Shown: positions 2,809 to 62,055, counted from the stretch's first letter. The stretch: 64,000 nt of DNA from Candidatus Woesearchaeota archaeon (GCA_016180065.1 JACPBY010000001.1:100851-164850), one strand, 5' to 3'. The notes: generated by a model from the sequence alone, not told the origin. A program made the numbers and translations.

Positions 2809-3396
2809 TTATGCCCCTGTGATGCGAAGCTCTGCCCCTGCTTTTCCAAGCCTGACCGACAATGTCTTTAACCCCCTGACATACAGCTGGTTGTCGTTTG
2901 GGGTGTCATCCATGACATTAACAGCGGTTATGGCAGAATACTCATAAAAAAGCTTGCAGTCCCTTCCGCGATTATGTTCAGCGTCAATCTTCAGGCAGCC
3001 CTCATCTATGCATACGCACAGGCAAGACTGGCCGTTGCACTCCGGAGGGCTTTCAGCACCGTTGTTAATCTTCTGGTTCCTGTTAAAGCTCATGAGGAAG
3101 AGGCCCTTGTCCACCGAGAATGAGTGGGGAAGGTTATTTGCCGTTACCATGTTCCCGTTTTCATCCTCAATCTGCGTGCCAAGCATGTCAATCTTGCTCA
3201 TCATGTCAGCAAAGCCCCTGTCTACAGAATAGGCATTCGCTGTTGTTCCCCCAACTGTCAAGCCAAACATCCTGCCACCTATGGGCAATATAACGAAAGC
3301 AACAATCATGGCCGCTATCACCCAGCCGGCAGCCGAGAAGATGACCGTAGGGGTAATAGCGCCTTTCCTGCCCTTAACATTCAAAGCTTCATTCAT
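2809..3396 (-). CDS. prepilin-like membrane/surface protein
   Basis: I moved the start to the ATG at 3396, which overlaps the upstream gene end by 8 nt. N-terminus: MNEALNVKGRKGAITPTVIFSAAGWVIAAMIVAF. The protein contains a Cys cluster (CNGQSCLCVCIDEGC). Confidence 0.55.
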   Translation of the reverse strand: MNEALNVKGRKGAITPTVIFSAAGWVIAAMIVAFVILPIGGRMFGLTVGGTTANAYSVDRGFADMMSKIDMLGTQIEDENGNMVTANNLPHSFSVDKGLFLMSFNRNQKINNGAESPPECNGQSCLCVCIDEGCLKIDAEHNRGRDCKLFYEYSAITAVNVMDDTPNDNQLYVRGLKTLSVRLGKAGAELRITGA

Positions 3397-3664
3397 TGTT
3401 TTCTTCCCTGATAACGCAGCAGTAGAGTTGGCCAGTGCAACCCAAGCCCTTGATTTCCTGGCCATCAGGGCACTGGCTGGGGTTGGCGCCGCCCTGAACG
3501 CACTTATATTTCGGCTCGCACTGGTTCACCTTGTTCACGCTGCCCATTATGTTTCCAACCCCACCCTTGAAAATGGCAATGACTATCAGAATTACAACAA
3601 GCACAACAGCAGCAACAGCCACAGTTTCAATGGACAGGGCTGCGTTTTTCCTTCTCAAAACCAT
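3389..3664 (-). CDS. small type IV pilin-like protein (91 aa)
   Basis: N-terminus: MVLRRKNAALSIETVAVAAVVLVVILIVIAIF. If cleavage follows Ala, Glu sits at +5 as in bacterial T4 pilins. The C-terminal globular part is short and Cys-rich. Confidence 0.6.
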   Translation of the reverse strand: MVLRRKNAALSIETVAVAAVVLVVILIVIAIFKGGVGNIMGSVNKVNQCEPKYKCVQGGANPSQCPDGQEIKGLGCTGQLYCCVIREENNE

Positions 3665-3670
3665 ATGGCT

Positions 3671-4456
3671 TCACCTCTCCAACGCGTCATCAACGCTTAC
3701 GCCGCTTGGCGACGACTTCCGTGGAACCGGCACAGGCTTCACATCCTTTGTTTCATTCAGTTCAGAGACAAGAATATCGTATCTTGCCTTTAAAAGAACA
3801 TACCAACTCTCATAGGAATCAACAGCCAAGCCAAGGTGGTCCTGGACAAACTGCCTTGTCTCAAAGTCATTTATTGGGCCGATTGGAGGGCCGTAAACCC
3901 TAAGCCGCTTTGCGAGATGCCTGGAGCGCTCAGCATGAATCGCTCCAGAAGGCAGGCCAAGACCATAATAAGCCTCTTCAATGACTGCAAGGTTTTCCAT
4001 AATGCCGGCAAGCCCTTTACCGCTGCCAAGCAGCTGCAGGGTTTTGCCATCAACATACTTCCCGGAGAAGTTAAGAAGCTCGTGCTGCTGGATTGCAGTT
4101 TCAAGCTCCAAAGTCATAAGGTAAGGGACAGCCCTCATGGCATTCCCCTCATCAGGAGGGGCGGCAAGCATGACAGCCCAGTCATAGCCTGCAAGGTTTC
4201 TCACATCAACCTGAGCCTCAACATCCATTGGCGAAGTAAACACAAGCTCTTCAGTGGCAAGTGCCGGGATTTCAGGCCTGGCACTTCGCTTGGAAAATTC
4301 AAAAACCGCGAAAACAAGGATGGCAACAGCCAGGATAACCACAGCAGCAACTGCCAAAGCCCTGATGTTCCTTGGCCTGCCTGCACTATACTGGCTGTAC
4401 GGATAATTTCCCTGCGTTCCCTGGTATGCCCCCTGATTCCCGTAAGGCTGGTACAT
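3671..4456 (-). CDS. single-pass membrane protein with a Q/Y/G-rich N-terminal tail
   Basis: 261-aa ORF: MYQPYGNQGAYQGTQGNYPYSQYS...RNIRALAVAAVVILAVAILVFAVF. It sits inside the co-directional cluster and I recognise no family. Confidence 0.55.
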   Translation of the reverse strand: MYQPYGNQGAYQGTQGNYPYSQYSAGRPRNIRALAVAAVVILAVAILVFAVFEFSKRSARPEIPALATEELVFTSPMDVEAQVDVRNLAGYDWAVMLAAPPDEGNAMRAVPYLMTLELETAIQQHELLNFSGKYVDGKTLQLLGSGKGLAGIMENLAVIEEAYYGLGLPSGAIHAERSRHLAKRLRVYGPPIGPINDFETRQFVQDHLGLAVDSYESWYVLLKARYDILVSELNETKDVKPVPVPRKSSPSGVSVDDALER

Positions 4457-4479: not shown

Positions 4480-7400
4480 CTAAGATGCTGCTGCCAGCTT
4501 CTTCACATTCCCAAGCTCCATTTTCCTCAAGCCGTTAAAGCTGCTTATGTCTTTGGCATCCCAAAGCAGCTTCTGAACTTCAAGGTCTGTCAAGCCGTTT
4601 TCCCTGAAAGACCTTGCAGTGTCGTATGCCAACCCTGCATTTTCCAAAAATTCATCAGCCTTTGCGTTAAAGATATCATCCTCATCCTGCTCGCTCAATG
4701 CGCCGCTCACTTCGATGTTTGAAGCCATTGGGGCAACTACGCTGCCAAGCCACTCCTGCCTCTCTGTGCTGAAGCCCTCAATGTTAAGGGCGTTAAGGCT
4801 TCCAAGCGCAAACTTCTCAATGCTGGCAACCGGAAATACGGCAGTGCAACCGCGGGAAACATGGTCATCTATCGTGGCTTCAACAAGGACATCGTAGTAC
4901 GAGCACAAGGCCACCTTGCCGTCAGGAACGCTGAACTGCTCAGGGTCCAGCACAGGATTTCCGAGGTCATGGTCGTAGCCGTTCTGGAACATGACAAAGG
5001 CAAGCTCCTCTGAACCGTCATCATTAACAGCAACCACTGGCACAGCAACCTTAATCTCTTCTGATGCCATGAAGTCCTCTGCAGACTGAATGTATGCCTT
5101 TGAAGTGTCAAAGCTGGCTACTGCTGCCGGTGGCAGGTACATCGCAAGCATAGCCCTGAACTGAGGCTCAAGCGCCTTGTTTTTCACGACCTTTGCAAAA
5201 GGAACGGCGTAGTCAACTGCGAATGTATGTGCAGCGCTGACGGCAGTTCCTGCCCCTTCTGCCAGAGGCCTCAAGGCAGCGTAAGCAGTATCAGCAGCCC
5301 TGGCCTTAAGCACAACAAGCTGGTTAAAGAATGAGGGGAAATGCTCGGGCACAAGGGAAACCGAGCCTGTTTCCCTGCCTAGGACAGCAACAAGCCTGCC
5401 TCCCTTGTCATATATTTTTTCTCCCGGGGTTATCAGATTCTTTATGCCTGCTATCTCTGCAACAAGCTCCTTTAGCTCTTTTTCAACATCAGCCCCGCCA
5501 CTTATTCCCTCCCCAAGGCGCTTCTGAAGCACCCTGCGCTTCTTGAACAGCTCTGCAAGGCCCTGCTTTTTCAGCTCATAAGCCTTCACCATCCTTGCGG
5601 AAGCAGGGTCAATGCCTGAGTTAAGCACCCTCACGGCATCTGCATCCTCTGTTATGCCATAAGCCTTTTTGAGATAAACATCAATGAACTTTTTTCGCAG
5701 GTTAGAGTTTGCTTTTCCTCCCTTGGCCAGCAGCTCGCCAATCTCACCAGCCGTAAACTCTTCCCGCTGCACGAGCTTGAGGACATTCTTTATGCTCACT
5801 TTGTCATTGAGAAGCTCAGGAAAGCTATCCATAACTGCCTGATACCTCTCAGCCAGCCTTGGGCCAACATTATCAATGCTGCCAATGGTTGCCCTGAACT
5901 GGTAAGTAACCATGTTCCCATCCCTGGCAAGGGCTACGAGATAAGGCCTTTCATTCTTTCCAGTTGTAAGGATGAACTCAGCCGCAAGCTTCTTCAGCTT
6001 CATGGCCTCCTCCATTGACTTTGCAGCCTCCTCAAAAGCTTCAGGCGAAGCCTTTGCAATCATAACCTGCTTTGCAAGCCTCGGGTTGGTTATGCCGTGC
6101 TCAGGCCCCAGCCAGCCGTTCACAGCCTTTATGACTGCAGGGTCGTCATCGGCAAGCCTGGCAGGATTTTTCAAAACCTTCAGCACCTCATCCTTATTCA
6201 GGCCGCCCTGCAGGAGCTTCAGTGCCATCTCCTGATTCTTGGGCTTTGCAAATACAAAAGGATGCTGCGCAACGAGAGTAGTGTAGGCTTCCTTCACTTC
6301 CTTCACCAGGTCATCATACCTTGCTGGGTTGTTTGCGAGCGAGTTTTCAAACGTCTTCAGGAACCTGACTCTGAGCGTTTTCCCTGTTGCAAGCTCTGCT
6401 GTTTCAAAGCTTTCAAACCCCGCCTTAACCCTGCGCGCCTTCAGCACCCTGATGGGCTGTGCCGCAATTTCGCGCAGAACATTCACAGCTTCTTTTGTCA
6501 ATCCGGTTGCGGATTTACCAAACTCCCTTGCAAGGATTGCCGCATTTTCCCTTGTTATCACAGCCCTGGACTGCGAGGCAGCCTTAACCACGAGTTCCTG
6601 TGACAACGAGCCGGTTTTCCCGGCAAGTTTGACCATCTGCCTGCTCTTCGCAACAAAGCCTGCAGCAGATGCCTTGCCAACGCTCATGAGCGCTTTTGGG
6701 CCGCCAAACATGTAAAACGTAGGGTCACCGAATATGTCTATGGCCATGCCCTTTGACAGCACCAGAGCCCGGTGGCCAAACGATTTCAGGTTGGCAACCT
6801 TGCTTCGGGCATCAACTGCATAGTCTGACTCGGGGAAATAATCAACAACAACATTGTACATCTCAATCGCCATGCCGTCATCGCCAAGCCCCTTAAAGAA
6901 CCCTGCAACCTCATAGTAAATGTCATCAAGGACATCATACTGCCTATCATCGTCTTTCCCTGAAAAGTCGTCGTACTTTGCAATAGCAAGAACAAGCGGT
7001 GTGTTGCTTTGGGCTATGGCATTCTCATCAGCCCACTTTTGCTCTGATACAAACAGCCCCATGCTGGCAGAATAGCCGCCTACCGCGTCAAAATCCTTCA
7101 CAGCCTGGTCTCTTACAGCCTTGTCCTTGCTGCTCATGGCAACTTCCAGCTTTGCCCGGTAAGCCATAAACTGCTTGCCTATGCTGTCATATTTCTCGTT
7201 AAGGTAATAATCCTTGGCCTTGCTCAACCTTAACTCGTTCATCGTGCCAACAACAGAAACAAGGGGCGTGCCCTGCTCAGCGTCAGCCATCAGCTTTTCT
7301 ATCAGGTTGAGCTTGCTTTCCCGGGTCTGAAGCTTTGAGCCTTCAATAAACATCTTTACCGGGTTAATAAGGTCAAAAACAAAGAAGAAACCCCCCATCG

Positions 7401-10400
7401 TGTTTGCCTCTATGTTCTGGTTCATCACCCCTGTTATTACAGAAAGGACAGCGATTGCCTTCTGGTTAACTTCCTGCACAGAATGCGGCTCGCAGCACAC
7501 CTTGCCAACAGGCATTGTTACCCCATAGCCTGCTTTTTCTGCCGGGCAGGCATAAGGCGCAACAGAGCCGCCAGCAGCCCTGCACTCAACATCATACTCG
7601 CACGAATAAATGCAGGGGCTTTTAGTGAACTCCGGTTTGCCATAGTCAACAATCCCGCCGCAAAGGAACGACGACAGCTTTCTGGCTTCTTCTTTCTCTG
7701 CAACTATTGCTGTTGTAGTTCCATCGCTGTTGCATTCAAACACAACCTCCTCGCTGGCCTTGCCAAGGCATCCTACCCATTGCGCCCCAACCTGCATTCT
7801 TTCCCTGCAGTCAGATGAGGCAGCTGGAGTAAAGGAAGGCAAATCCAAAGGCCTGCCGGTAACGTCCACTGCAGAAATTTTTATCGGCTTCGGGGAAGGC
7901 TCAAAAAACAGGTTGTTCCACTCGCGCCTGCAGGTGTTGCCCAGCCAGTCGCACGGCAGGATGCTCCACTCTGTTGAATCAGCCTGCTGCATCCTCAGCC
8001 ACCTTAACGGCTGGGTTGAAGTGATATCAATCACAAGCTTAAACAGCTCTCCAGGCAAAGGCTTCTCAGGAATTGTTTTTGGCTCATCGCCGGTATAATG
8101 GGTTTCGGGCATAATAGGCTGGATGTTTGCTGCCCTGCCGGTTATTTTAACCCAGCCGCGATTTTTCAGGTTGTTTGCAAGGTTCTTCCTGGCCTTGCAG
8201 GTGTCGCCGGTGTCGGGCTTGCAGCTTTCTATTGAAAGGAAGCCTTTCTGCTGTTCTTCGCCAGGATACTGCTTTTTTATGGCAGCCTCATAAAGGGCAT
8301 GGACTGCCTCGGGCCTGCAGCCTTTGCCATCTTTGTAGAGCCTGTCAAAGTCACAGTCGAACAATGCCTTTATTTCCGGGTTGCTGTTATAGATGCCTTT
8401 CGCAACGTCATTCTTCCTGATGAACTGGCGCTTCTTTCCAACAACGTTGCAGCCGTCCTGCATCTTGAACAGTGAGTTTTTCCCGCAGCTTGTGGCATCA
8501 GAATCGTAAAGCTCTATGTAGCGGTCATCGTAAAGGTTTACCGTTGCCGGGGATGGGCCTGAGGCCAGCTCATACTTTATGCTGTCCAAAGCCTTAAGCG
8601 TGAACCTGTGCGAGCCGTCATACGTGCTGTCAAACGGGCCTATCCTGATTTTCTCGTAAACATTACCGCCGGTTGGCGCAACAGAAACAGGCAGCACGTT
8701 CACGAACTGGTCTTCCCTGTCCTGCGCATACCTCCTGTGCTCGTGCTTTATCTCAAAGCTTTTGATGCTTTCAACAGGGCCGCTCAGCACCCAGCTTGCG
8801 CTTATCGTGCCGTCAGGGTTTGGAACAAGCCTGAAATCCTGCACCCTGACTTCAGAAGGCGCCAGGATTATTGGAGTATTAGCACTAGCTTCCTGCCAGC
8901 CTTTTTTGTTAAGCTCTTCAGTCAGCACACGCCTCGCAGAGCAGACTTTGCGCACATCACCTTCAAATCCCGCCTTTCCCAGCTTTAACGCGCTGTCAAG
9001 GTCGCAGTTAGAGCCAGTAACCTTATCATAACTGGCAGAGAAAAACTTCCCCATCAGCTTCTCATACATCAGATTAACAGCTTCAGGAACCTTGCAGTTG
9101 TCCATGCCACTGCCTTTTTCGTAAACGCAGCCAAGCTCATCAAACTTTGCCTTTATGCCGCCATAAATCTCCTCAGCAGATGGCGAAACTTTTTTGATTA
9201 ATGCCTTCTTATTCCCGATAACATCACAGTTTGCTATGCACCAGTAAGATTCAGTATATTGAGTCTTGGGTGGCTGCTGGTAATATTCAATGAACCTTTG
9301 GTTGTAAAGCCCAACGCCTGCCTTTACCTCGTTTGACTTGAAGTTACTGTCTGCATTGCTTGTTGCGGATATCGTGAACTCATGCCAGCCCAGCTGATTC
9401 TCCCTGGGAACTGCATGGGAGAAGGAGCGGGTTGCAGGGCCCTTTTCCAGGCGCTCAGGGGATGATGTTACAGACTTGATTTCATTGCCTTCCTTGTAAA
9501 TAAGCCTTGTAACAACATGATTTATCTCAAAGCCCTTCACGTTGTTTTTGCCGACAGGAACAGACCAGCTCACGGCCATTACGCCATTCTCGTCGCTCTT
9601 CACGGCTGCGCTGTCAAGGTTTGGCTCCCTGTTGTCGAGGTAGCTTGCTATAACCCTGCCGTATTTCTCATTCCTGTCCCCTGCGGAACCAGAGATGGCC
9701 ATCTGCTTCCATCCCAGCTTATCCCGCAGATGCTTTTCCAGGCTGTTGGAGCACTGCGCAAAATCATTTTTTACGTCTGCCTTCACGCTGTCAACAGTCC
9801 ATTTCTTGTTGTCCCACAGCTTTTCAGCAGCGTTCATGAACTCTGTCAGCGCATCGACCTTGGCTTCCTCACAAACCCTTCGGTAGAAGTCAAATGCTGC
9901 CGCCTTCTGGTAAACATCATTGATCTGGGCTGCTGTGCACCCGTTGAAAGTAATAGGCCCAATGCTTCCGTATGCCTGCATTTGCGAAGGGGCAGGGTAG
10001 TCGCAGCACTGGCCGCCATCGCACGTCCTGCCAACCTTACCGCCGTTTTTATTGACAAGCTCATTGTAAATAATCATCACGCCTTCCCTGCACTTTTCCG
10101 GAATGTTGCTCCCAAGTTTCGCTATCAGCTTTGCCCGCTTGCACTCAATCACGTCACAATCGCTGCAGCCACTAACAGGATTGTCAAAGAGCTCAAGATA
10201 GCTTTCGTCGTAGAAGCCAAGCTCAAACCTCTTCACGTCCTTTGTGCTCCCGTCCTTTTTGAGGACAGCAACGAACGTGTACCAGCCCGGCTTGAACTTC
10301 CCGCTGAGCGTGGAAACGCCGCCCATGGCCTGGCTGACTGTTCCACCGCAATCAGCTTCATCAGCAGGGCACTTTACATTAAACTTCTTTTCCAGCTTCC

Positions 10401-10752
10401 CCCCGTTTTTACCTTCGCTTGTGTAAACAAGGTTTTGTTTTTGTTCAGTATTAGGCGGATCCGGCGCCCTGAAATTACCGCTGCCCTCTGCTTTTTCCGT
10501 GTAGCTACTGTGAATCTCAAGGACTGCATTATCCTTGTTTCCGCCAAGCGTTGCAGCAAAGGCAAGGTTGCCGTCTTCGGCTGGCACTGCAGAGAAAGAG
10601 CCTATTTTTGGCTTTCCCCACCCAAGGTCAAAATTGTCAGTTACGGCTTCCATGGCATGAGCGATGGGCCCGCCAGCTACCTTGAGGGCTATGAAAGCCA
10701 CAATCATCATGATTACAGCGCCCTTAAGGTCCATCCAGGGCATTTCAGCCAA
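4480..10752 (-). CDS. giant (2,090 aa) prepilin-like surface protein with three tandem about 250-300-aa repeats and a long helical C-terminal half
   Basis: Uninterrupted 6.3-kb ORF with N-terminus MAEMPWMDLKGAVIMMIVAFIALKV. The repeat markers are FYDESYLELFD..CSDCDVIECK, LYNQRFIEYY..CIANCDVIGNK and LYDDRYIELYD..DGCNVVGKK. Each repeat ends with L..(K/R).GW. Confidence 0.8.
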   Translation of the reverse strand: MAEMPWMDLKGAVIMMIVAFIALKVAGGPIAHAMEAVTDNFDLGWGKPKIGSFSAVPAEDGNLAFAATLGGNKDNAVLEIHSSYTEKAEGSGNFRAPDPPNTEQKQNLVYTSEGKNGGKLEKKFNVKCPADEADCGGTVSQAMGGVSTLSGKFKPGWYTFVAVLKKDGSTKDVKRFELGFYDESYLELFDNPVSGCSDCDVIECKRAKLIAKLGSNIPEKCREGVMIIYNELVNKNGGKVGRTCDGGQCCDYPAPSQMQAYGSIGPITFNGCTAAQINDVYQKAAAFDFYRRVCEEAKVDALTEFMNAAEKLWDNKKWTVDSVKADVKNDFAQCSNSLEKHLRDKLGWKQMAISGSAGDRNEKYGRVIASYLDNREPNLDSAAVKSDENGVMAVSWSVPVGKNNVKGFEINHVVTRLIYKEGNEIKSVTSSPERLEKGPATRSFSHAVPRENQLGWHEFTISATSNADSNFKSNEVKAGVGLYNQRFIEYYQQPPKTQYTESYWCIANCDVIGNKKALIKKVSPSAEEIYGGIKAKFDELGCVYEKGSGMDNCKVPEAVNLMYEKLMGKFFSASYDKVTGSNCDLDSALKLGKAGFEGDVRKVCSARRVLTEELNKKGWQEASANTPIILAPSEVRVQDFRLVPNPDGTISASWVLSGPVESIKSFEIKHEHRRYAQDREDQFVNVLPVSVAPTGGNVYEKIRIGPFDSTYDGSHRFTLKALDSIKYELASGPSPATVNLYDDRYIELYDSDATSCGKNSLFKMQDGCNVVGKKRQFIRKNDVAKGIYNSNPEIKALFDCDFDRLYKDGKGCRPEAVHALYEAAIKKQYPGEEQQKGFLSIESCKPDTGDTCKARKNLANNLKNRGWVKITGRAANIQPIMPETHYTGDEPKTIPEKPLPGELFKLVIDITSTQPLRWLRMQQADSTEWSILPCDWLGNTCRREWNNLFFEPSPKPIKISAVDVTGRPLDLPSFTPAASSDCRERMQVGAQWVGCLGKASEEVVFECNSDGTTTAIVAEKEEARKLSSFLCGGIVDYGKPEFTKSPCIYSCEYDVECRAAGGSVAPYACPAEKAGYGVTMPVGKVCCEPHSVQEVNQKAIAVLSVITGVMNQNIEANTMGGFFFVFDLINPVKMFIEGSKLQTRESKLNLIEKLMADAEQGTPLVSVVGTMNELRLSKAKDYYLNEKYDSIGKQFMAYRAKLEVAMSSKDKAVRDQAVKDFDAVGGYSASMGLFVSEQKWADENAIAQSNTPLVLAIAKYDDFSGKDDDRQYDVLDDIYYEVAGFFKGLGDDGMAIEMYNVVVDYFPESDYAVDARSKVANLKSFGHRALVLSKGMAIDIFGDPTFYMFGGPKALMSVGKASAAGFVAKSRQMVKLAGKTGSLSQELVVKAASQSRAVITRENAAILAREFGKSATGLTKEAVNVLREIAAQPIRVLKARRVKAGFESFETAELATGKTLRVRFLKTFENSLANNPARYDDLVKEVKEAYTTLVAQHPFVFAKPKNQEMALKLLQGGLNKDEVLKVLKNPARLADDDPAVIKAVNGWLGPEHGITNPRLAKQVMIAKASPEAFEEAAKSMEEAMKLKKLAAEFILTTGKNERPYLVALARDGNMVTYQFRATIGSIDNVGPRLAERYQAVMDSFPELLNDKVSIKNVLKLVQREEFTAGEIGELLAKGGKANSNLRKKFIDVYLKKAYGITEDADAVRVLNSGIDPASARMVKAYELKKQGLAELFKKRRVLQKRLGEGISGGADVEKELKELVAEIAGIKNLITPGEKIYDKGGRLVAVLGRETGSVSLVPEHFPSFFNQLVVLKARAADTAYAALRPLAEGAGTAVSAAHTFAVDYAVPFAKVVKNKALEPQFRAMLAMYLPPAAVASFDTSKAYIQSAEDFMASEEIKVAVPVVAVNDDGSEELAFVMFQNGYDHDLGNPVLDPEQFSVPDGKVALCSYYDVLVEATIDDHVSRGCTAVFPVASIEKFALGSLNALNIEGFSTERQEWLGSVVAPMASNIEVSGALSEQDEDDIFNAKADEFLENAGLAYDTARSFRENGLTDLEVQKLLWDAKDISSFNGLRKMELGNVKKLAAAS

Positions 10753-10909
10753 ACCTCATTTCCCTGATGAAGCCAAGGTCAACCACGCCAAAGGCTGCGG
10801 CTGCGAAAACCAGAAGCATAATCAGGATGCCAAGGGCAATAATCCAGCCACCCAGATGGCCCCAGGTAGTCGCTTCCTGACCCTTTTTACCAATGGCAAA
10901 ACTCCTCAT
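10745..10909 (-). CDS. small prepilin-like protein (54 aa)
   Basis: Track ORF 10745..10948. I prefer the ATG at 10909 because a TATA-like box at 10963-10972 is too close to 10948. N-terminus: MRSFAIGKKGQEATTWGHLGGWIIALGILIMLLVF. Confidence 0.45.
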   Translation of the reverse strand: MRSFAIGKKGQEATTWGHLGGWIIALGILIMLLVFAAAAFGVVDLGFIREMRFG

Positions 10910-11002: not shown

Positions 11003-11971
11003 TTACCGCTTCTCCAGCTCTGCAGGATAATAGGTGCAGCCAATCTCGTTCTTGAGCATGCTGCCAGAATTCACACCGTTCCACTCCCTCAGGACTGTGA
11101 ACGCAGCCCATTCAGGAACATTATCACGGCTCGTAAGGAATGAAACAGCTTCTGACATGCCGTAAAAAACACCGAATGCTGCAGCGCCTGCACCAAGCAC
11201 AACCCAGCCGGGAGGGCCTGCAACAACACCTATGCTTGCCACGGCAAGCATAGTCCCGCCTGCTGCCAAAGCCCCGCCGCCAACCCCTATTACCAGCCCT
11301 GCCTTGCCCTCTGCTGTTTGAGCTGTCAAATGCCTCGCCACTTCCGCTATCTGGTCCTCGCCTTTTGCATAAACAAAAATCGAGGCATACGTTCCTTTTT
11401 TCAGCTCGCCTTTCTCCACAGTGCCGAGCAAGGGCGTGTTTTTCAAGGTGCCAAGCACCTGCTCAGCTTTTGATGTTTTAAAGCTTGAAAGATAATCAAT
11501 GTAAAGCCTTCCGCTCCTGTCAGGAATCTCCTCATCCATGAGATATTGACTAAGCCCTGCAACGGGCTCGCCAGCCCTGATATCAATGAATGCGCAGACA
11601 GTGCAATAGGTCGCTTCGTCGATGAACAGGTTGAGCTTGCCCTCGCCAAAATTGTTCCAGCAGTCATACATGGCATTGGCTATCCTCCTCTTCGCCTTTT
11701 CCTGAGCAGATGGAGTGCTGGTTTTCGTTATCTTGATGTCCTGCGCAGGGCACTCTATTGCAGCAGGAAACTCAAACCCCCTGATGTGGAGATTGGCATT
11801 CCTCTGAACGCTCCCCTTGCATGCGGTTGCATCAGCAGAGCTCTCGCTTGCCTCAGCAACGCCCCCCATGAATTTGAATGACAGCAATATCATCGCAACG
11901 ACAACAGCAAGAAGCACGATTGTTTCGTTCTCAAGGCCTTTCTTGTTGAGCCTCTTAAGCACAGGCAGCAT
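11003..11971 (-). CDS. prepilin-like protein, paralog of 11973..13040, with an extra Gly/Ala-rich C-terminal membrane segment
   Basis: The ATG at 11971 directly follows the upstream stop. N-terminus: MLPVLKRLNKKGLENETIVLLAVVVAMILLSF. It shares the motif DCWNNFGEGKLNLF..CTVCAFI with its neighbour. Confidence 0.6.
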   Translation of the reverse strand: MLPVLKRLNKKGLENETIVLLAVVVAMILLSFKFMGGVAEASESSADATACKGSVQRNANLHIRGFEFPAAIECPAQDIKITKTSTPSAQEKAKRRIANAMYDCWNNFGEGKLNLFIDEATYCTVCAFIDIRAGEPVAGLSQYLMDEEIPDRSGRLYIDYLSSFKTSKAEQVLGTLKNTPLLGTVEKGELKKGTYASIFVYAKGEDQIAEVARHLTAQTAEGKAGLVIGVGGGALAAGGTMLAVASIGVVAGPPGWVVLGAGAAAFGVFYGMSEAVSFLTSRDNVPEWAAFTVLREWNGVNSGSMLKNEIGCTYYPAELEKR

Positions 11972-11972
11972 C

Positions 11973-13040
11973 TCAGTAAAGCCTCTTGCAGGTGCTGGCA
12001 AGCTCCGAGGACGGGACAAGGCGGACAGTGGCAGGGAAAACTTTCAAGGTGCCTGTCTTGCCAAGCTCCACCTTCCAGTTTGTAAGGTCAACTTCATTTC
12101 CTCCATCAACAACCTTCCCAAACACAAGCCCGGGATTTTCACCTTCCCTGTAGCCCGGAACCGGCTTGCCATACCCTGTGTTGCAGCCTATGTCGGCAGC
12201 GTCTCCTCCTGTCACAGGGTTTTTGTCATAGCCGCCAAGATAGCAGTCAACGATGCCCGCATTTGGAGGCGCGGTGGAACCGGTTGAGTATTTCCCAAAA
12301 AAATACCTGTTTTGGGACTGGGTTGACAAGGCGAACACAACGCTGTAAGGCTGCGGCACTCTCTTTCCAGTCTTATCAGCATAAAACTTTATGGCCTTGC
12401 CATCAAACGCGCTTATGTATCTAGTAAAGTCCTGGGGCTTGTGGACTGAGTTTTCAAGGAAATATTCCATGTACGTTTTCTCATCCTTCGGAGGAATTGC
12501 TGTTGCGGCAGCATAGGAGTAAAGGTTCGTGAGCTCAACAGCATCGCCTTCATCAACAAAGTCCTGGCTGGGGATTATCTCAGAGCAGACGATGCAGGCT
12601 GTTCCATCCTTGGCATCAACTGACTGCTGCAGCTTTATCTTGCCCTCGCCAAACATGTACCAGCAGTCCTTCATGTTCTTCATGATGAGCTCCTTAAGCT
12701 GGTTCTCCCTCTCCCCAGTATCGGTGCTGAGCCGAATTTTGTCATCATACCTCTTTATGCTCTTCTTTGTTATTTCGCTGAAAATAGTCTTGCAATTAAA
12801 CTGGAAAGGGCTGTCCATGAATGTATAATCCATCACCCAGAAGTCCTTTGTGAACTGAAAGCTTGCGAGGGCAACGCTCAGCTTGCACCCTTCAATAAGG
12901 TCTTTTGTCTGGGCAGCAGCAATGTAAGGCTTGGTCATTGAAAAGACAAGGAAGAACACTGCCACAGCTGCTACTGCACTAACTACCTCTCCTTGGGCAA
13001 GCCCTTTCTTTTCCTTTTTTCCAACAGGGCTTCCTGGCAT
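11973..13040 (-). CDS. prepilin-like protein, paralog of 11003..11971
   Basis: N-terminus: MPGSPVGKKEKKGLAQGEVVSAVAAVAVFFLVF. It carries the motif DCWYMFGEGKIKLQ..CIVCSEI. Confidence 0.65.
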   Translation of the reverse strand: MPGSPVGKKEKKGLAQGEVVSAVAAVAVFFLVFSMTKPYIAAAQTKDLIEGCKLSVALASFQFTKDFWVMDYTFMDSPFQFNCKTIFSEITKKSIKRYDDKIRLSTDTGERENQLKELIMKNMKDCWYMFGEGKIKLQQSVDAKDGTACIVCSEIIPSQDFVDEGDAVELTNLYSYAAATAIPPKDEKTYMEYFLENSVHKPQDFTRYISAFDGKAIKFYADKTGKRVPQPYSVVFALSTQSQNRYFFGKYSTGSTAPPNAGIVDCYLGGYDKNPVTGGDAADIGCNTGYGKPVPGYREGENPGLVFGKVVDGGNEVDLTNWKVELGKTGTLKVFPATVRLVPSSELASTCKRLY

Positions 13041-13041
13041 G

Positions 13042-13188
13042 TCAGCAGATGCCTCCGCTCCACGTGCCGGTTTTGCACATTATGCTCCTCAGAACCATGA
13101 AAATGATGACAATCGCCCCAATGACAACGACGCTTCCAAGCACGGTCTCTGACAGGATAGCTGTGCCTCTTTTCTTACTGCACACCAT
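13042..13188 (-). CDS. mini prepilin-like protein (48 aa), first gene of the cluster
   Basis: Not in the track because it is shorter than 60 aa. My translation is MVCSKKRGTAILSETVLGSVVVIGAIVIIFMVLRSIMCKTGTWSGGIC. Its stop lies 1 nt before the next ATG at 13040. Confidence 0.45.
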   Translation of the reverse strand: MVCSKKRGTAILSETVLGSVVVIGAIVIIFMVLRSIMCKTGTWSGGIC

Positions 13189-13238: not shown

Positions 13239-13583
13239 TTACAGCTTTCTTATTCTTATGCGTCCGTCTTTAACCACTACCAGCTTGCCTTCAACATCAA
13301 GCTCCCGCATGGTTTTAGTTAGGATACCAAATCTCTCCTCAGGGTCAGTGCTGGCAGTTCTTAGAAGGATAAACCCCGGGGCTGGCTTCCTTCGCCTGAC
13401 AATCAGTTCGCCGAAGTCTTTATCATCAGAAATCAGGATTCTGCCTTCGCTTTCTGCTCTGGCAAGGACTGCCTCATCACTTGCAGCGGGCATAATATCT
13501 CCTGCAAATATAACATCATGTTTAGCGCCTGCTAGCATGTCAGCCAGCCTTTTACCTGTGCTTTCATCAACCAGAAGCCGCAT
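13239..13583 (-). CDS. PIN-like toxin (DUF5615-type)
   Basis: MRLLVDES...HDVIFAG...SDEAVLARAESEGRILISDDKDFGEL...PGFILLR matches the DUF5615 pattern. It overlaps the upstream DUF433 gene. Confidence 0.7.
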   Translation of the reverse strand: MRLLVDESTGKRLADMLAGAKHDVIFAGDIMPAASDEAVLARAESEGRILISDDKDFGELIVRRRKPAPGFILLRTASTDPEERFGILTKTMRELDVEGKLVVVKDGRIRIRKL

Positions 13584-13827
13584 AAGCTGCCTTTTTCTCC
13601 TCTATTTCAGGTATGATGTCCTCTCCCCTAACGAGGCTTGCAGAATACTCAACTGCTGCTCTCACATCATCCTTAGTCAGGTTTGGGTAGTCCTTGAGTA
13701 TTCCTTCAGTAGTCATACCATCAGCTATTCTTTGGAGGATTGCGTCTACAGGCACTCTAGTGCCTTTGATTACAGGCTTCCCAACCATTATTTTTGGGTC
13801 CACAATTATCCTTTTCATGAAGTCCAT
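13567..13827 (-). CDS. DUF433 family antitoxin-like protein
   Basis: IIVDPKIMVGKPVIKGTRVPVDAILQRIADGMTTEGILKDYPNLTKDDVRAAVEY is a typical DUF433 signature. Confidence 0.75.
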   Translation of the reverse strand: MDFMKRIIVDPKIMVGKPVIKGTRVPVDAILQRIADGMTTEGILKDYPNLTKDDVRAAVEYSASLVRGEDIIPEIEEKKAAYAASG

Positions 13828-13898: not shown

Positions 13899-16337
13899 TT
13901 GCAGCTGATAAAGAAATTTTTGATGGCTGCTTCTGATGGCGAAGGCGGCAAAGGCGAGGAAAGCCTTGAGGCGCTTATAGAAAAGAGCTTAAGGATTAAA
14001 CCCCTTTTTGAAAAAACCCATCCTGCCGGGGCAGAGGCTGCCCCCAAAACTCTCATAGAGAGGCTGCTCCCGCTCTCAGCAGCTGCTGCAAATGCAGTGC
14101 TGTCATCCCCAGGCAACCCGGCATATGCGCCTGCTGCGGTCGGAGCACTGACATACATTCTTGCCAGCAAAACCGCCAGGTTAGCAAAGCTAAACAGCAA
14201 AATCAGCACAGCAACTTACGGGCTTGGCCCTTCATTTGCCAGCAATGTCTTATTCCAATTTAAAGGATTGGCTGCCATCGTTTCAGGCATGGTGTCTTTT
14301 GCAATCCCTTATTCCGCCAAAAGCTTCGGGGATGAAACAGGCAGTTCCCTGGACTGGTTTGCTGAGCTGGCAAAGTCCCTGCCAAGCTTTGCTCCTGAAA
14401 TAGCATACGGCACGCTCAGCGGCTTTGGCACATACGTTCTCCTGACAGGGCTCCAGCATGTTGCACATCCGCAGAGCCTACTTACTGCATGGCACATGCT
14501 GCGCAAAAATCCTGAAAAAATGGCTGGAATTCCCCATTCAAAAGAAAAGGAGATTGGGCTGCTGCTGCAGATGGGGGACGCCTTTCTTGACTCAAAAAAT
14601 TTTGCTGGCGCTGCTGGCGCGTATAAAGGACTTCTTCAGTCAGCAATGAGAACTGACGGCAAAACAGGAATCTCTGACTGGCTTGTAGGCAGAGCGAAGA
14701 ATGTGCAGGCTTATGGCACAACCATTCCCAATCCGCTGCAGCAGGCAATGCACGAATTTGCAGCCGGAAACCATGAAAGCGCTCATTCTCTGCTGGCATA
14801 TGCAATAAGAATTGAGCCTAACAACAGGGACCTGCACAGGATAAGAGCTTTGTTTTTTCAGGTGCTTGGAGAGAAGAGCGCAGCAGACCTTGAAATGCGC
14901 ATATTTGTTGAGCTGGCAAGGAGGGACGCTGAATCAATTTTTGAACTGGTCGGGGAATCCCGCAACAGGGTGCTCACTATAAAAGGCGGAAGAACCCGCG
15001 ACATATATGTGAAAGAAGGCCCTGCCAGTTCTTTTGATGATGAAGCGAGGAATATTTCAGAATTCTCCCGAGAGATTCCCGGAAGACTGCCATCAGTTGT
15101 AGGAATGTGTCCGGCTGATGCAAAAGGGAAAGCGGCTATGGCTGTTGAAAGCATGGGGAACGCAACCATGCTGCAAAAGGCAATCACAGGCAACCTGACG
15201 GCACAAGATGTGGAGTCAACAATTGATTTGCTGTTAGAAGTCTTAACAGCCGGGGAAAAACTAAGAAAGCAGGGAAAAATAAAGGTTGCAGAGCCAATCA
15301 GCCTGCCAACATACATTTATTCAAGCCAAACAGCCCTTAAAAGCCTTGGCAGAAATGCTGTGCAGGAAAACGTGCACGAAGAAAACGGCACAAAGCAAAC
15401 CCCGCTGTATTTCGCGCACAGGGTCAATGACCTTTTTGTCCTGGGCGTGCAGGAGCATAACGGGATAGAGTTTACGCAGGAATTCGCAGATAAAGTCATG
15501 AATGGGGCAGCAGTCCTCAATTATCTCCTGCTTGAGCATCCCCTGATTAAGCAGGGAACGCTCAACGGGGTGTACACGGACTTTACGCACCGGAACATAA
15601 TCTTTGACAGCCTGTCGGGAGCCTTGAAAGGGAAGATAGACTGGGAGCAGATAAAGGTGCTGCCTGTAATGTTTGAGCTTGTAAACATACTTGAATTCTA
15701 CCGCGTAAACTTCTCAGCCAGCCAAATAGAGTCCTTTCAAAAATATTTTGTCAACAGGTTTGAACATGCATCTGGAGCAAAAATCAGCATGAGCCAGTTT
15801 AGTTTCTTATACCACACAGCTGCGGCCATAAGGCACCTTGAGCTGATATCTTACAGAAGCAGGGATGCAGCGTTTAACCCGGAGAACGCCTCTGCGCAGG
15901 CTTACCATCACCTTATGGCAAGGATGCACCTCGTTGAGGTAATTGCAAAAGCACCAATAACCCAGAACCATCCTGCAAGGGCGGCGCTTGAGGAAATGCT
16001 TCAGCAATTGGATATGACACCAATTATGAAGGATGCAAGGCAACAAAAGGAACTTGAAAGCGAAGTCCGGCTTCACGCAACGAGAGCTGGCCCATCAATG
16101 AGATACCTTGCTCACGAAGCATCGCAGAAGGCATACTGGAAAGACTTTTTCAGCCCACCCCAAAACTTTCTACGCCGTCCACACTTAACCAACACTCCTT
16201 ACAGGAAAGCCAGTGTTGCCGAAAACCTGGCAAGCAATGCATCAGTTATTATTGGAGTCCCTGCAGCATTGGCGACAGCAGGAACCTTTGACACTGCACT
16301 GTATTTTGCCCTTCAAACAATAATGCCTTCATTGTGA
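13899..16337 (+). CDS. membrane-associated TPR-like / protein-kinase-like (APH/choline-kinase fold) protein, 812 aa
   Basis: The catalytic-loop-like motif YTDFTHRNIIF (DxxxxN) is followed by GKIDWEQ. Hydrophobic segments lie near the N- and C-termini. The track start is a TTG at 13899, and the first ATG is at 13923. Confidence 0.7.
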   Translation: MQLIKKFLMAASDGEGGKGEESLEALIEKSLRIKPLFEKTHPAGAEAAPKTLIERLLPLSAAAANAVLSSPGNPAYAPAAVGALTYILASKTARLAKLNSKISTATYGLGPSFASNVLFQFKGLAAIVSGMVSFAIPYSAKSFGDETGSSLDWFAELAKSLPSFAPEIAYGTLSGFGTYVLLTGLQHVAHPQSLLTAWHMLRKNPEKMAGIPHSKEKEIGLLLQMGDAFLDSKNFAGAAGAYKGLLQSAMRTDGKTGISDWLVGRAKNVQAYGTTIPNPLQQAMHEFAAGNHESAHSLLAYAIRIEPNNRDLHRIRALFFQVLGEKSAADLEMRIFVELARRDAESIFELVGESRNRVLTIKGGRTRDIYVKEGPASSFDDEARNISEFSREIPGRLPSVVGMCPADAKGKAAMAVESMGNATMLQKAITGNLTAQDVESTIDLLLEVLTAGEKLRKQGKIKVAEPISLPTYIYSSQTALKSLGRNAVQENVHEENGTKQTPLYFAHRVNDLFVLGVQEHNGIEFTQEFADKVMNGAAVLNYLLLEHPLIKQGTLNGVYTDFTHRNIIFDSLSGALKGKIDWEQIKVLPVMFELVNILEFYRVNFSASQIESFQKYFVNRFEHASGAKISMSQFSFLYHTAAAIRHLELISYRSRDAAFNPENASAQAYHHLMARMHLVEVIAKAPITQNHPARAALEEMLQQLDMTPIMKDARQQKELESEVRLHATRAGPSMRYLAHEASQKAYWKDFFSPPQNFLRRPHLTNTPYRKASVAENLASNASVIIGVPAALATAGTFDTALYFALQTIMPSL

Positions 16338-18001: not shown

Positions 18002-19585
18002 TTAGCTTTTCAGCTCAGGAAACGCCATCATGGAGTGCCTTGCCCTTTCTTTGGCTGCTGAGATGGATAAAGAAGCAAGGTCGTTCAGCAGCGGAATTTT
18101 TATGGGAATCGCGAACCTGGTGAAGGCACTGGTAACTATGGCTTCGCCCTTGTCAAGCGAGGCTATGTTCCGGTCATCTGTTGTGAGGTCCTGGGCCGCA
18201 GACTCTATGAGCGCTGACCTTTCAGGAGCCATCTCCATTCCAAGAATTATCTTCGTGTTGATGTTTGCAAGGACTTCTTTCGGGATAAGAGAAGGCAACT
18301 GGGTAATCGCGATAAGGCCGACCTTGAACTTTCTTCCTTCCCTGGCGATTGTCAGGAAGATATTTCCCCCCCGCTCAACCACTTCCCTGCCAAGCACCCT
18401 CGGCGCTTCTTCAACAACCATTGAGATGACCGGCTTCGAGTCCAGCAGGCCATCGCGCTTGTAGTGCCTGTACCTTCTAAGCGCTTCAGAGGCAAAAAGG
18501 CTTCCTATCAGCAGCTCAACCTGCCCAGAAAAGCTTGAAGTGTCTATTATGACGACCTTGCCGCCTTCAAGGCTGTCAAGAACATCGCTGATTGTGGAAA
18601 TGCCTGCCTCAACATCAAATATGCCGTTGCAGTAAATCTCATTGTCCCTGGCTTCAATGTCAAGCAGCGAGCAAAGCCGCCTTTTCAGGACAGCCAAGGT
18701 GCCTTCATGGAAGTTCGGGGCAGGCTCATCCTTAAGCACAGCCTCAATCCACCTGCTGCCATGCCTTTTGCTGTAGTAGCCAAGAGCCTCACGCTGCGCA
18801 TCAGACCAGCTGACAACACCATTGAAGTGCGACGGCCTCACATGCCTCAGGTTGATTTTCAGCGTTCTGGCGCCCTGCGGGGGGCTGTTTGGAGTATAAT
18901 ATATGACGCTGTCCCTCTCAGGATAGTCCTTTAGCCCGGTGCGGCTGCGGCCGTAATACTCATCATGGGGGTCAAGGACAAGGATTCCCGCATAGCCCCT
19001 GGATGCGAGGTCCCACAACATGCACGATGTCAGGTTTGACTTGCCCTTGCCTGTCTGGGCTGCAATCATTATGTGATGGGAAAGAGCCTTCTCGCCATCA
19101 ATCCTTATGTCAAAGTCAAGCACGCTGGAGCCTGAGCGCACCTTCCCAAGCAGCAGCGGGGCAGCAGGCTTGGAAAGGAAGGAAAGATCATCAGGAGAAA
19201 CCGCCCTGACCTGTGAGAAGAAAGCAGGAAGGGACTTGCAGACCCTTGCTTCCTTCCCGGTAATAGCCAGCAGAGGCTTCAGGAACGCGAGGGTATAGCT
19301 CCTCAGGCCCTTGTCAAGGAACTCAAGCTCCGCATCACCCTCCAGCTTTACGCCAGAGATAAGCTCAAGGCTCTGCTGCGAGAGCTGCGAGCCGTAACTG
19401 AGGTCAAACACCTGAAGCAGAATCCTGCCTTCAGAAGTATCAGATATTAAAAGCTCGCCAATCTCAAGCCTGGCACCGGACTTCTGCCTCACAACAACGC
19501 CAGAGAACCCGCCTGAAATAACCTGGCCAACCACGCCTAAATGACCTGCGCTGCTGCCATCTGTATGCTCCCATTCGTTTGCCAT
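18002..19585 (-). CDS. HerA-like (DUF87) P-loop ATPase with an N-terminal HAS-barrel
   Basis: Walker A is [10 protein letters not shown]. The N-terminal barrel-like region is [29 protein letters not shown]. The length is 527 aa. Confidence 0.8.
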
Positions 19586-20153: not shown

Positions 20154-20198
20154 AAATATATAGCTGGGTTTGATAATTTGCAATTATGCGTGTAAAAT

Positions 20199-20361
20199 CT
20201 GATTTTCCACCAATCTCTGATTGGTGGTATCTGTTTGTGGAAAATCAGGCTCTGAGCAAACCGACCCGAGCGAAGCGAGCATGCAAATCGGCAGCAGCCG
20301 ATTGCACATTCCGCAATGCGGAATTGCGCCACCGGTCTTTGACCGGTGGTGGTCGGTTTGC
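20199..20361 (+). other. cluster of strong hairpins: a 12-bp stem-loop followed by a 106-nt four-helix element
   Basis: ctgattttccac (20199-20210) pairs with gtggaaaatcag (20237-20248). gcaaaccgacc (20256-20266) pairs with ggtcggtttgc (20351-20361) and encloses three hairpins. The strand is not determined. Confidence 0.4.
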
Positions 20362-61869: not shown

Positions 61870-62055
61870 GTCCAACCTATACGCACCTCTTCTTTTCTTT
61901 CTGTTGCTTTCTGAAAGCACTGGTATAAATACATTTCTGTATTTATGCACACGTTTGGCGGGATTGGTTTGTTGCAATTCATCACAACAATCTTTAAATA
62001 TGACCTCATATTGTGTCTTATGACATCATACTTTGAAGGTTTTGGAGGTGTTGGG

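Follow-up and report, generated by a model that had tools for sequence, protein, structure and literature searches.

A sequon-free protein of 2,087 residues encoded within a prepilin-like gene cluster assigned to a Woesearchaeota-type archaeon: a candidate for host or cell contact

Introduction

A 64,000-nucleotide stretch of DNA from Candidatus Woesearchaeota archaeon (GCA_016180065.1, JACPBY010000001.1:100851-164850; hereafter the window) contains, at 4480..10752 on the minus strand, a single uninterrupted open reading frame (ORF) of 6.3 kb, which raises the question of what so large a protein is for and where on the cell it would work. The window encodes archaeal Nop56/58, fibrillarin, an ATP-dependent DNA ligase, PCNA, RFC, an XPD-type helicase and an archaeal FBPase, and orthologs of the large protein (here, the giant) sit in metagenome-assembled genomes (MAGs) labelled Candidatus Woesearchaeota or Nanoarchaeota; judged by this gene content and these orthologs, the source organism is a Woesearchaeota-type DPANN archaeon. 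Cultivated members of this DPANN lineage group are reported to depend, all of them, on cell contact with a host (PMC11291902). An initial annotation of the ORF had proposed a tip adhesin or a cell-cell contact protein on a pilin-like anchor. Here, homology searches, structure models, gene neighborhoods and sequence statistics are combined to ask how much of that proposal stands. We arrive at an exported, glycan-free surface protein of a pilus-associated, type-IV-filament-like apparatus with a role in contact with a host or another cell, a reading whose chances we judge to be about even.

Results

The gene and its orthologs

The frame counts 2,090 codons from a TTG at 10752, the length reported by the initial annotation, and is closed upstream by an in-frame TGA at 10758-10756; the uninterrupted ORF is confirmed. 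Its first ATG lies at 10743, 1 nucleotide (nt) past the stop codon (10747-10745) of an upstream ORF of 54 amino acids (aa). The product is therefore taken as a likely 2,087 aa beginning MPWMDLKGAV (coding sequence 4480..10743 (-), stop codon 4480-4482 included), with the TTG as an alternative start. The GC content of the ORF (0.50-0.51) is the same as that of the remainder of the window.

Full-length collinear orthologs were found in three proteins: P0002 (2,054 aa, 55% identity, from a Logan assembly), P0003 (1,874 aa, 35-36% identity, from ENA and JGI) and P0004 (2,045 aa, 40% identity, MAG JACPBX01). Their alignment holds several hundred invariant columns spread over the whole length of the giant. 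Because such orthologs occur in independent Woesearchaeota assemblies, an assembly error is argued against, and the comparison identifies the giant as a real, conserved gene. A search of a 5.8-billion-protein index recovered only the two orthologs, and scans with the ortholog alignment gave only further P0003-like copies in metagenomes and no match in viral contigs.

No Pfam family was matched by the whole protein at E<=1, both halves of four orthologs gave only weak tetratricopeptide repeat (TPR) matches at E<=10, and NCBIfam returned no family. Sequence and profile searches of the PDB recovered a single TPR unit; matches to histone H2B (E=0.07) and to a flagellin-hook protein (E=0.047) were dismissed as chance. 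The globular parts, which the initial annotation had not recognized, are still without a family, with one TPR unit and folds resembling fibronectin type III (FN3) as the only yield, and the clear homology to a known adhesin or S-layer family that would have spoken against its proposal was absent from Pfam and NCBIfam.

The prepilin-like gene cluster and the leader

The giant lies in a same-strand cluster of 11-12 ORFs that are separated or overlapped by a few bases, and its own packing is operon-like, with 1 nt to the upstream and 23 nt to the downstream ORF. A motif scan ([KR][GA], then an uncharged 16-residue hydrophobic stretch within 12 residues) matched 9 cluster ORFs versus 2 of the 47 other ORFs of the window, and the number of cluster ORFs in which [KR]G precedes a transmembrane (TM) segment at the N-terminus is put at 9-11 of 12. 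Upstream of the giant (all on the minus strand; arrows mark putative cleavage sites), the prepilin-like ORFs encode 48 aa (13042-13188, KKRG↓T), 355 aa (11973-13040, KKG↓L), 338 aa by ORF (11003-12019, KKG↓L; likely ATG near 11971) and the 54-aa mini-prepilin (10745..10909, KKG↓Q; MRSFAIGKKG↓QEATTWGHLGGWIIALG..., 67% identical to its ortholog in locus L003). The giant itself (4480-10743, 2,087 aa) has a degenerate LKG↓A. Downstream of it, beyond a 261-aa membrane protein described below, lie ORFs of 91 aa (3389-3664, KNA↓A), 218 aa (2809-3465, RKG↓A), 176 aa (2319-2849, KRG↓E), 195 aa (1766-2353, KRG↓I) and 309 aa (913-1842, KKG↓Q), and a partial one (1-907, KKG↓L) that runs off the window.

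Gene order and content are kept in three further loci (L001, L003 and L004) at pairwise identities of 25-72%, and all four share the arrangement of two to three prepilin-like genes, the 54-aa mini-prepilin, the giant, the 261-aa TM protein and five to six prepilin-like genes. A run of prepilin-like genes with conserved order, lacking machinery genes nearby, resembles a minor-pilin operon placed away from the assembly genes, and it is to such an operon that we therefore liken the cluster.

The N-terminus of the giant (aa 1-27, 10663..10743 (-), MPWMDLKG↓AVIMMIVAFIALKVAGGPI) carries its only strongly hydrophobic segment. Residues 9-27 reach a Kyte-Doolittle value of 2.21 (19-residue window) directly after K-G, and since no other such segment occurs in the 2,087 residues, a second TM helix is not predicted. 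A candidate for one at aa ~1098-1130, which would have implied a receptor-like topology, was rejected as the hydropathy threshold is not reached there and the corresponding segments of relatives carry charged residues. A hydrophobic stretch of about 20 residues thus follows immediately on a putative class III cleavage site, in the leader MPWMDLK-G↓AVIMM, where K-G is present and the net charge is 0. The K-G is not conserved, being Q-G in P0002 and Q-S in P0003, and the ortholog in L003 has a canonical class III GKRG↓A located 7 residues upstream of the aligned position. An AxA-type site after the hydrophobic segment (AHA↓ME in the giant, ANA in P0002) is likewise variable, being conserved neither in P0003 nor in the ortholog from L003. 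Given the surrounding genes, it is plausible that the N-terminus is a degenerate class III (prepilin-type) signal, whereas a Sec signal cleaved at AHA↓ME is an equally valid reading of the same residues. The pilin-type N-terminus of the initial annotation is thus retained for its K-G followed by a TM segment, with a canonical counterpart in L003, and weakened by its degenerate and non-conserved motif.

Sequon depletion

N-glycosylation sequons (N-x-S/T, where x is not P) were counted and compared with expectations from shuffled sequences (500 shuffles for the giant). Despite 102 Asn residues, the giant has 0 sequons versus 10.3 +/- 2.9 expected, a count as low as this occurring in 0 of 500 shuffles, while the control motifs S/T-x-N and D-x-S/T appear 9 and 14 times, respectively. 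The orthologs P0002, P0003 and P0004 have 0, 1 and 0 sequons versus about 8.5 expected for each, and depletion is seen in both halves of the giant family. The prepilin-like neighbors in the four loci together have 11 versus 33 expected.

Cytoplasmic proteins of the window carry sequons at expectation, and a surface protein of the DUF11/CLIPPER type, anchored by a TM segment at its C-terminus (20186-22057 (+), 623 aa), has 16 versus 5.3 expected; because this protein is sequon-rich, the organism evidently uses N-glycosylation on its surface proteins. A second giant ORF (57331-61977 (-), 1,548 aa) has 48 sequons versus 18.8 expected. This ORF has no kinship with the first giant; it contains 64 Cys and an N-terminal KKRRG↓A followed by a TM segment, matches no Pfam family, and probably encodes a surface protein with heavy glycosylation that may be S-layer-like.

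Taken together, these counts indicate that the giant family is under selection to avoid N-glycosylation sites. In a cytoplasmic protein, the number of sequons would drift to expectation, and the depletion would therefore mean that the whole chain, including its Cys-poor C-terminal half, is exported. The pattern argues that glycans would disturb the function of the giant, be it through tight packing, a narrow passage, or entry into the envelope of a partner cell. No report of a sequon-free signature for a protein of this kind was found in the literature.

The cysteine-rich N-terminal half

The 38 Cys residues of the giant are distributed unevenly: aa 1-1090 contain 36 of them, and the remaining 997 residues (aa 1091-2087) only 2. 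Those of the N-terminal half occur in even numbers per unit (12, 6, 6, 6 and 6), and most are invariant among the four orthologs, a pattern typical of what would be an extracellular, disulfide-bonded region. Three tandem Cys-containing repeats had been described by the initial annotation and are borne out by Smith-Waterman scores against 200 shuffles (units 2 and 3, z=24.8; units 1 and 3, z=5.7; units 1 and 2, z=4.5). BLASTP self-comparison detected no repeat, so the three units are diverged. Unit 1 (aa ~44-350, 9694..10614 (-)) has a beta-rich and a helical part and 12 Cys; unit 2 (aa ~375-620, 8884..9621 (-)) and unit 3 (aa ~630-866, 8146..8856 (-)) each combine an FN3-like beta-sandwich with a helical subdomain and have 6 Cys. 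The conserved motifs that had been read in these units are present, namely FYDESYLELF, LYNQRFIEYY and LYDDRYIELY in units 1 to 3, followed by CSDCDVI, CIANCDVI and (C-x11-)CNVV and by unit ends in LGW, KKGW and NRGW; the exact C..C spacing claimed for all three fails in unit 3, where C-x11-C takes the place of C-x2/3-C. A fourth beta-rich region (aa ~885-1030, 7654..8091 (-)) contains 6 invariant Cys and is modeled with per-residue confidence scores (pLDDT) below 50.

An AlphaFold2 model of aa 1-1100, built from a four-row alignment, has a mean pLDDT of 46, with units 2 and 3 reaching 55-77 and each showing a beta part of seven strands that leads into a helical one. In Foldseek searches, the beta parts of units 2 and 3 match FN3 domains in tandem pairs, such as those of neogenin, DCC, Ihog and contactin (E=2e-5 to 1e-3, probability 1.0), and the Pfam fn3 family has no match in the giant. 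With moderate confidence, each repeat unit can thus be modeled as an FN3-like beta-sandwich joined to a helical, probably disulfide-bonded subdomain.

The shared core module and its membrane partner

A profile of aa 1000-2087, run exhaustively with HMMER against 1.84 billion representatives, gave 14 proteins. Seven of these (P0009-P0015, 646-1,784 aa) match only aa ~1033-1435 of the giant (E=2e-23 to 2e-5), P0016 is an ordinary TPR protein, and the remainder are orthologs and ortholog fragments. Profile-profile comparison (hhalign) of the giant with P0009 and P0013 gave probabilities of 96-97%, confined to this core region, and found no similarity of the C-terminal 720 aa to either protein outside it. 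The alignment of the core runs from a six-Cys knot through an amphipathic helix with G(F/G)F..(F/I)(D/N)..N and a helical region, which ends in a TPR-like unit and S.GHKA, to a last motif G(L/D)(D/P)..(I/Y)P.

In the giant, the knot occupies aa 1040-1086 (7486..7626 (-), C-x3-C-x5-C-x11-CP-x16-CC) and corresponds to the Cys-dense segment of the initial annotation, whose six Cys (aa 1044-1084) all proved invariant. The C-terminus of the 91-aa ORF at 3389-3664 (C-x5-C-x9-CP-x10-C-x5-CC) looks similar; the resemblance was set aside as unproven, the match to a knot profile (E=0.73) not being significant. The helical domain follows at aa 1091-1340 (6724..7473 (-)) and includes GGFFFVFDLINPVKMF and a TPR-like unit at aa ~1276-1325 (nt 6769-6918), the stretch that had been quoted as TPR-like. 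This is the one statistically supported unit, matching CpoB (E=4e-6) and the designed protein CTPR3 (E=5e-6) when the core profile is compared with the PDB, and Pfam TPR_6 in two of four orthologs (E=0.01). No tandem array was found in the giant, which by these matches contains a TPR-like unit and is not a TPR protein. The core ends in the near-invariant AIDIFGDPxFYxFGGPKAL (aa 1334-1352, 6688..6744 (-)), the form taken by the last motif in the giant family, and AlphaFold2 confidence is very low from about aa 1343 onward.

The flanks of the core differ between proteins. N-termini include PSI-like, Cys-rich and cohesin-like ones, and at the C-terminus P0010 has an HExxH motif and P0011 a sub-threshold HD-domain match (E=0.008); a kinase-like reading of the P0012 and P0014 C-termini was set aside as resting on motifs, with no match in Pfam or PDB. 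The knot is present in the archaeal members and missing from P0010, P0011 and P0015, in which cohesin-like N-termini follow a QKQQxIRQRA motif. P0015 (L011, 1183-3663) is encoded on a bacterial contig that carries RF-1 and bL31, and the QKQQxIRQRA motif together with the cohesin-like N-terminus suggests a Candidate Phyla Radiation (CPR, Patescibacteria) origin for all three. By these alignments, the core is a previously undescribed module common to the giant, to other DPANN archaeal proteins and to at least one bacterial protein. Sequon depletion extends to its archaeal relatives (P0012, P0013, P0014 and P0009 with 0, 0, 0 and 3 sequons versus 5.0-9.6 expected); P0010, P0011 and P0015 are not depleted (9, 5 and 4 versus 7.8, 7.9 and 4.7).

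The gene 23 nt downstream of the giant (3671..4456 (-)) encodes a 261-aa single-pass membrane protein with no Cys and no relative in Pfam or PDB, in which IRA↓L directly before the TM segment was picked up by a loose [KR][GA]-plus-TM scan. A profile of four orthologs of this protein, searched against the 1,645 ORFs of all fetched loci, matched the genes directly adjacent to P0009 (E=2e-15) and P0013 (E=2e-14), both on the opposite strand from the core-module gene, and weakly the gene adjacent to P0012 (E=2e-3). No homolog was detectable on the bacterial contig L011. In the archaeal cases, the core module and this partner travel together with or without a pilin cluster. Such pairing regardless of the cluster suggests a link between the two that is functional and probably physical.

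The C-terminal region

The last ~720 aa (4483..6648 (-)) form an alpha/beta region with 2 Cys and no fold match that is found in orthologs only. An AlphaFold2 model of aa 1000-2087 from a 15-row alignment has a mean pLDDT of 65.5 and shows long, well-predicted helices with several small beta-sheets. The helical tail with TPR-like stretches that had been predicted for this half accordingly holds as to its mostly helical character, while the small beta-sheets and the single supported TPR unit depart from it. Foldseek comparison of the model with the PDB, the check originally recommended for this half, gave no structural match better than E=0.55, the best being generic helical bundles (BAR domains, designed proteins and BamD), and a reading as a BAR domain or pore-former was rejected at that value. 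Within the region, LLQGGLxxDEVxxVL-type motifs recur (LLQGGL(N/T)xDEVxxVL / FRENGLTDLEVQKLL) at aa ~1510, ~1655 and ~2046 (~6170-6215, ~5735-5780 and ~4560-4605 (-)). Similar G(L/I/V)xxxxxhxxhh motifs come after the core module in distant relatives.

Other features of the window

Next to the cluster, a DUF433 (E=1e-23) and DUF5615 PIN-like (E=2e-18) pair in a toxin-antitoxin-type layout (13239-13827 (-)) sits between the prepilin-like genes and a divergent 812-aa gene, a position at which it does not occur in L001 or L003. The 812-aa protein (13899-16337 (+)) has a weak match to APH/phosphotransferase (kinase-like) proteins (E=3e-6); its gene adjoins the cluster divergently in L001 and L003 too (39-44% identity), and it may be functionally linked to the cluster. 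A HerA/DUF87-type ATPase gene at 18002-19585 (-) splits two genes that are adjacent in L001 and is therefore a lineage-specific insertion.

Discussion

The evidence can be drawn together in a model in which the N-terminal hydrophobic helix would carry the giant across the membrane and then either stay as an anchor or be processed like its neighbors into a short pilus or pseudopilus. The three FN3-like/helical units and the fourth beta-rich region would form a rigid extracellular stalk, distal to which the six-Cys knot, the helical core (aa ~1033-1435) and the lineage-specific ~720-aa C-terminal region would make up the working end. The core module would act with the adjacent 261-aa membrane protein, a step for which the pairing of the genes is observed and physical interaction presumed. 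Selection would keep both halves sequon-free, presumably as the whole chain meets the oligosaccharyltransferase outside the cell and must stay bare. Class III processing, incorporation into a filament, the geometry of stalk and tip, and the interaction with a host are all steps that we infer, and a location at the tip is conjecture. Of the originally proposed tip adhesin or cell-contact protein on a pilin-like anchor, the syntenic prepilin-like cluster, the canonical leader of the L003 ortholog, the FN3-like Cys repeats and the dependence of cultivated members of the lineage group on host contact speak in favor; the weak leader of the giant itself, the lack of machinery genes in the window and the lack of a pilin-family match speak against. 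That annotation had overlooked the shared core module, the conserved membrane partner and the complete absence of sequons.

Parts of this arrangement are familiar from other systems. In Pseudomonas, the minor-pilin operon fimU-pilVWXY1E includes a large non-pilin tip adhesin, PilY1, which has a beta-propeller and often a vWA domain. As in the cluster described here, small pilin-like genes placed apart from the assembly genes surround one large gene; neither a beta-propeller nor a vWA domain was detected in the giant, however, and the archaeal genes are unrelated in sequence to those of fimU-pilVWXY1E. PilB of Streptococcus sanguinis is reportedly far smaller, the appended part being much larger in the giant with its 2,087 aa. 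In both proteins a bulky module follows an N-terminal hydrophobic helix, which is pilin-type in PilB and putatively so in the giant, and the filament would display that module. The two modules of PilB include a true pilin fold, and its prepilin leader is canonical (PMC8179133), whereas the giant has a degenerate leader and no demonstrated pilin fold.

The closest parallels in archaea are the large adhesin-like proteins of type IV filament (TFF) loci, such as systems 2 and 4G/4I (bioRxiv 10.64898/2026.04.22.720090). These are very large surface proteins with Ig/FN3 folds, encoded among pilin genes with class III signals and presumed to serve adhesion or recognition, much as the giant has FN3-like repeats and is encoded among prepilin-like genes. 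TFF loci carry ATPase and platform genes (bioRxiv 10.64898/2026.04.22.720090), none of which lies near the giant's cluster, and their adhesins fall into defined arCOGs (e.g., arCOG05616) or are PilY-like, whereas the giant matches no family, has zero sequons and contains a new core module with a membrane partner of its own. The SPEARE proteins of Nanohaloarchaeota, which are giant, mostly extracytoplasmic and proposed to act in host attachment or entry (PMC6642349), would be functional analogs among DPANN extracytoplasmic proteins. Their hallmarks are serine-protease, laminin-G/adhesion and type III restriction endonuclease domains, and most versions also place a TM segment close to the C-terminus (PMC6642349); those domains were not detected by Pfam in the full protein or the ortholog halves, and the sole TM segment of the giant is N-terminal. 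Nor does the giant fit the S-layer proteins and known archaeal surface glycoproteins, given no family match and 0 sequons versus 10.3 expected, or the pilin and archaellin families, whose Pfam and NCBIfam profiles matched neither it nor the nine neighbors tested. Large adhesin-like proteins of archaeal TFF loci and modular pilins are thus an established kind; what would be new is the protein family, its lack of sequons as a signature, and the pairing of module and partner across DPANN archaea, the module also occurring by itself in at least one bacterium.

Several observations weigh against placing the giant in a filament. Its leader is a weak class III signal, with no net charge and with K-G lost in two orthologs, and its hydrophobic stretch begins at +1, where the neighbors have a spacer of 5-12 residues. 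None of the nine cluster neighbors tested matches a pilin family in Pfam or NCBIfam, and neither the 64-kb window nor the flanking sequence of the related loci yielded a pilus ATPase, platform protein or prepilin peptidase. P0009, P0012 and P0013 are encoded on archaeal contigs free of pilin clusters, so the core module itself would need no pilus. The partner lacks Cys in its window copy, and its six copies together show no sequon bias (9 versus 7.1 expected), a composition that would fit a cytoplasmic position of its 200-aa domain and makes a role in extracellular docking uncertain. Confidence in the structure models, moreover, is low to moderate (pLDDT 46 and 65.5).

The lost K-G, the missing machinery, the lack of a pilin-family match for the cluster proteins and the occurrence of the core-partner pair in archaea with no adjacent pilin cluster would also suit an ordinary Sec-exported envelope protein that stands outside any filament and is held at the surface by core-partner binding. 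Its N-terminus would then be a cleaved signal peptide, as the AxA-like motif in the giant and P0002 would allow, or a signal anchor, and the prepilin-like ORFs would be small type II membrane proteins. We regard this as unlikely, though a serious contender. The [KR]G recurs at a fixed distance before the TM segment in 9-11 of 12 cluster ORFs, a specificity well beyond what the positive-inside rule would predict, and few other ORFs of the window have it. In addition, P0003 and the L003 ortholog do not keep the AxA motif, a canonical KRG↓A is seen in one of the giant's orthologs, and the mini-prepilin ORF abuts the start of the giant in all four loci, all of which favors the pilus-associated surface protein.

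A bolder proposal sees in the core module and its partner an undescribed two-gene system with which ultra-small DPANN archaea would engage or breach the envelope of another cell, the core module alone being present also in at least one bacterium, probably a CPR member. In this Woesearchaeota lineage, the system would have been fused to a disulfide-stabilized FN3-like stalk and recruited to a pilus-like apparatus, with the Cys-poor, glycan-free C-terminal half entering or inserting into the host as a feeding junction or for effector delivery; we put it forward as speculation with rather poor prospects. Improbable, too, is a contact-dependent effector or toxin-like delivery protein, in which the Cys-rich N-terminal half would bind a target, the Cys-poor, glycan-free C-terminal half would insert into or cross its envelope, and the partner would be an immunity-like or holding factor. 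Polymorphic toxins and pore-forming colicins do share with the giant a conserved center with differing ends and an adjacent small membrane-protein gene. Pore-forming colicin immunity genes lie on the opposite strand from the toxin gene, as does the immediately adjacent partner gene in P0009 and P0013. Unrelated C-terminal regions follow the core in different proteins, including those with HExxH (P0010) and the weak HD match (P0011, E=0.008), and a C-terminal half with 2 Cys versus 36 in the N-terminal half and no sequons suits a chain that unfolds or takes a narrow path. However, the orthologs share a conserved and not a polymorphic C-terminal region, and the partner co-varies with the conserved core and not with the variable ends, unlike classical immunity proteins. 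The helical core has no hydrophobic hairpin, no toxin or pre-toxin domain (PT-TG, PT-HINT, Rhs) places the giant among polymorphic toxins, and no structural match to a toxin or pore-former emerged (Foldseek best E=0.55; XaxA E=2.4). The enzymatic readings of the relatives' C-termini fall below family thresholds or are motif-based only, and the bacterial contig L011 has no detectable partner homolog. Finally, the chance that 4480..10752 is an accidental or misassembled frame with no real gene is next to nil, as nothing was found to support it and the 6.3-kb ORF is kept end to end in at least three independent assemblies with its several hundred invariant columns, a conserved Cys pattern and a conserved gene order.

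Little is known of the proteins with which DPANN archaea and CPR bacteria attach to their hosts and exploit them, and the locus offers a concrete, conserved candidate apparatus, comprising a dozen prepilin-like genes, a putatively stalked protein of 2,087 aa, a module seen in archaeal and bacterial proteins, and an archaeal membrane partner. Sequon avoidance can be computed from the sequences of any proteome, and this simple signature could flag exported proteins that must stay bare. If the pairing of module and partner is confirmed, it would add two new protein families and make host contact by uncultivated Woesearchaeota accessible to testing.

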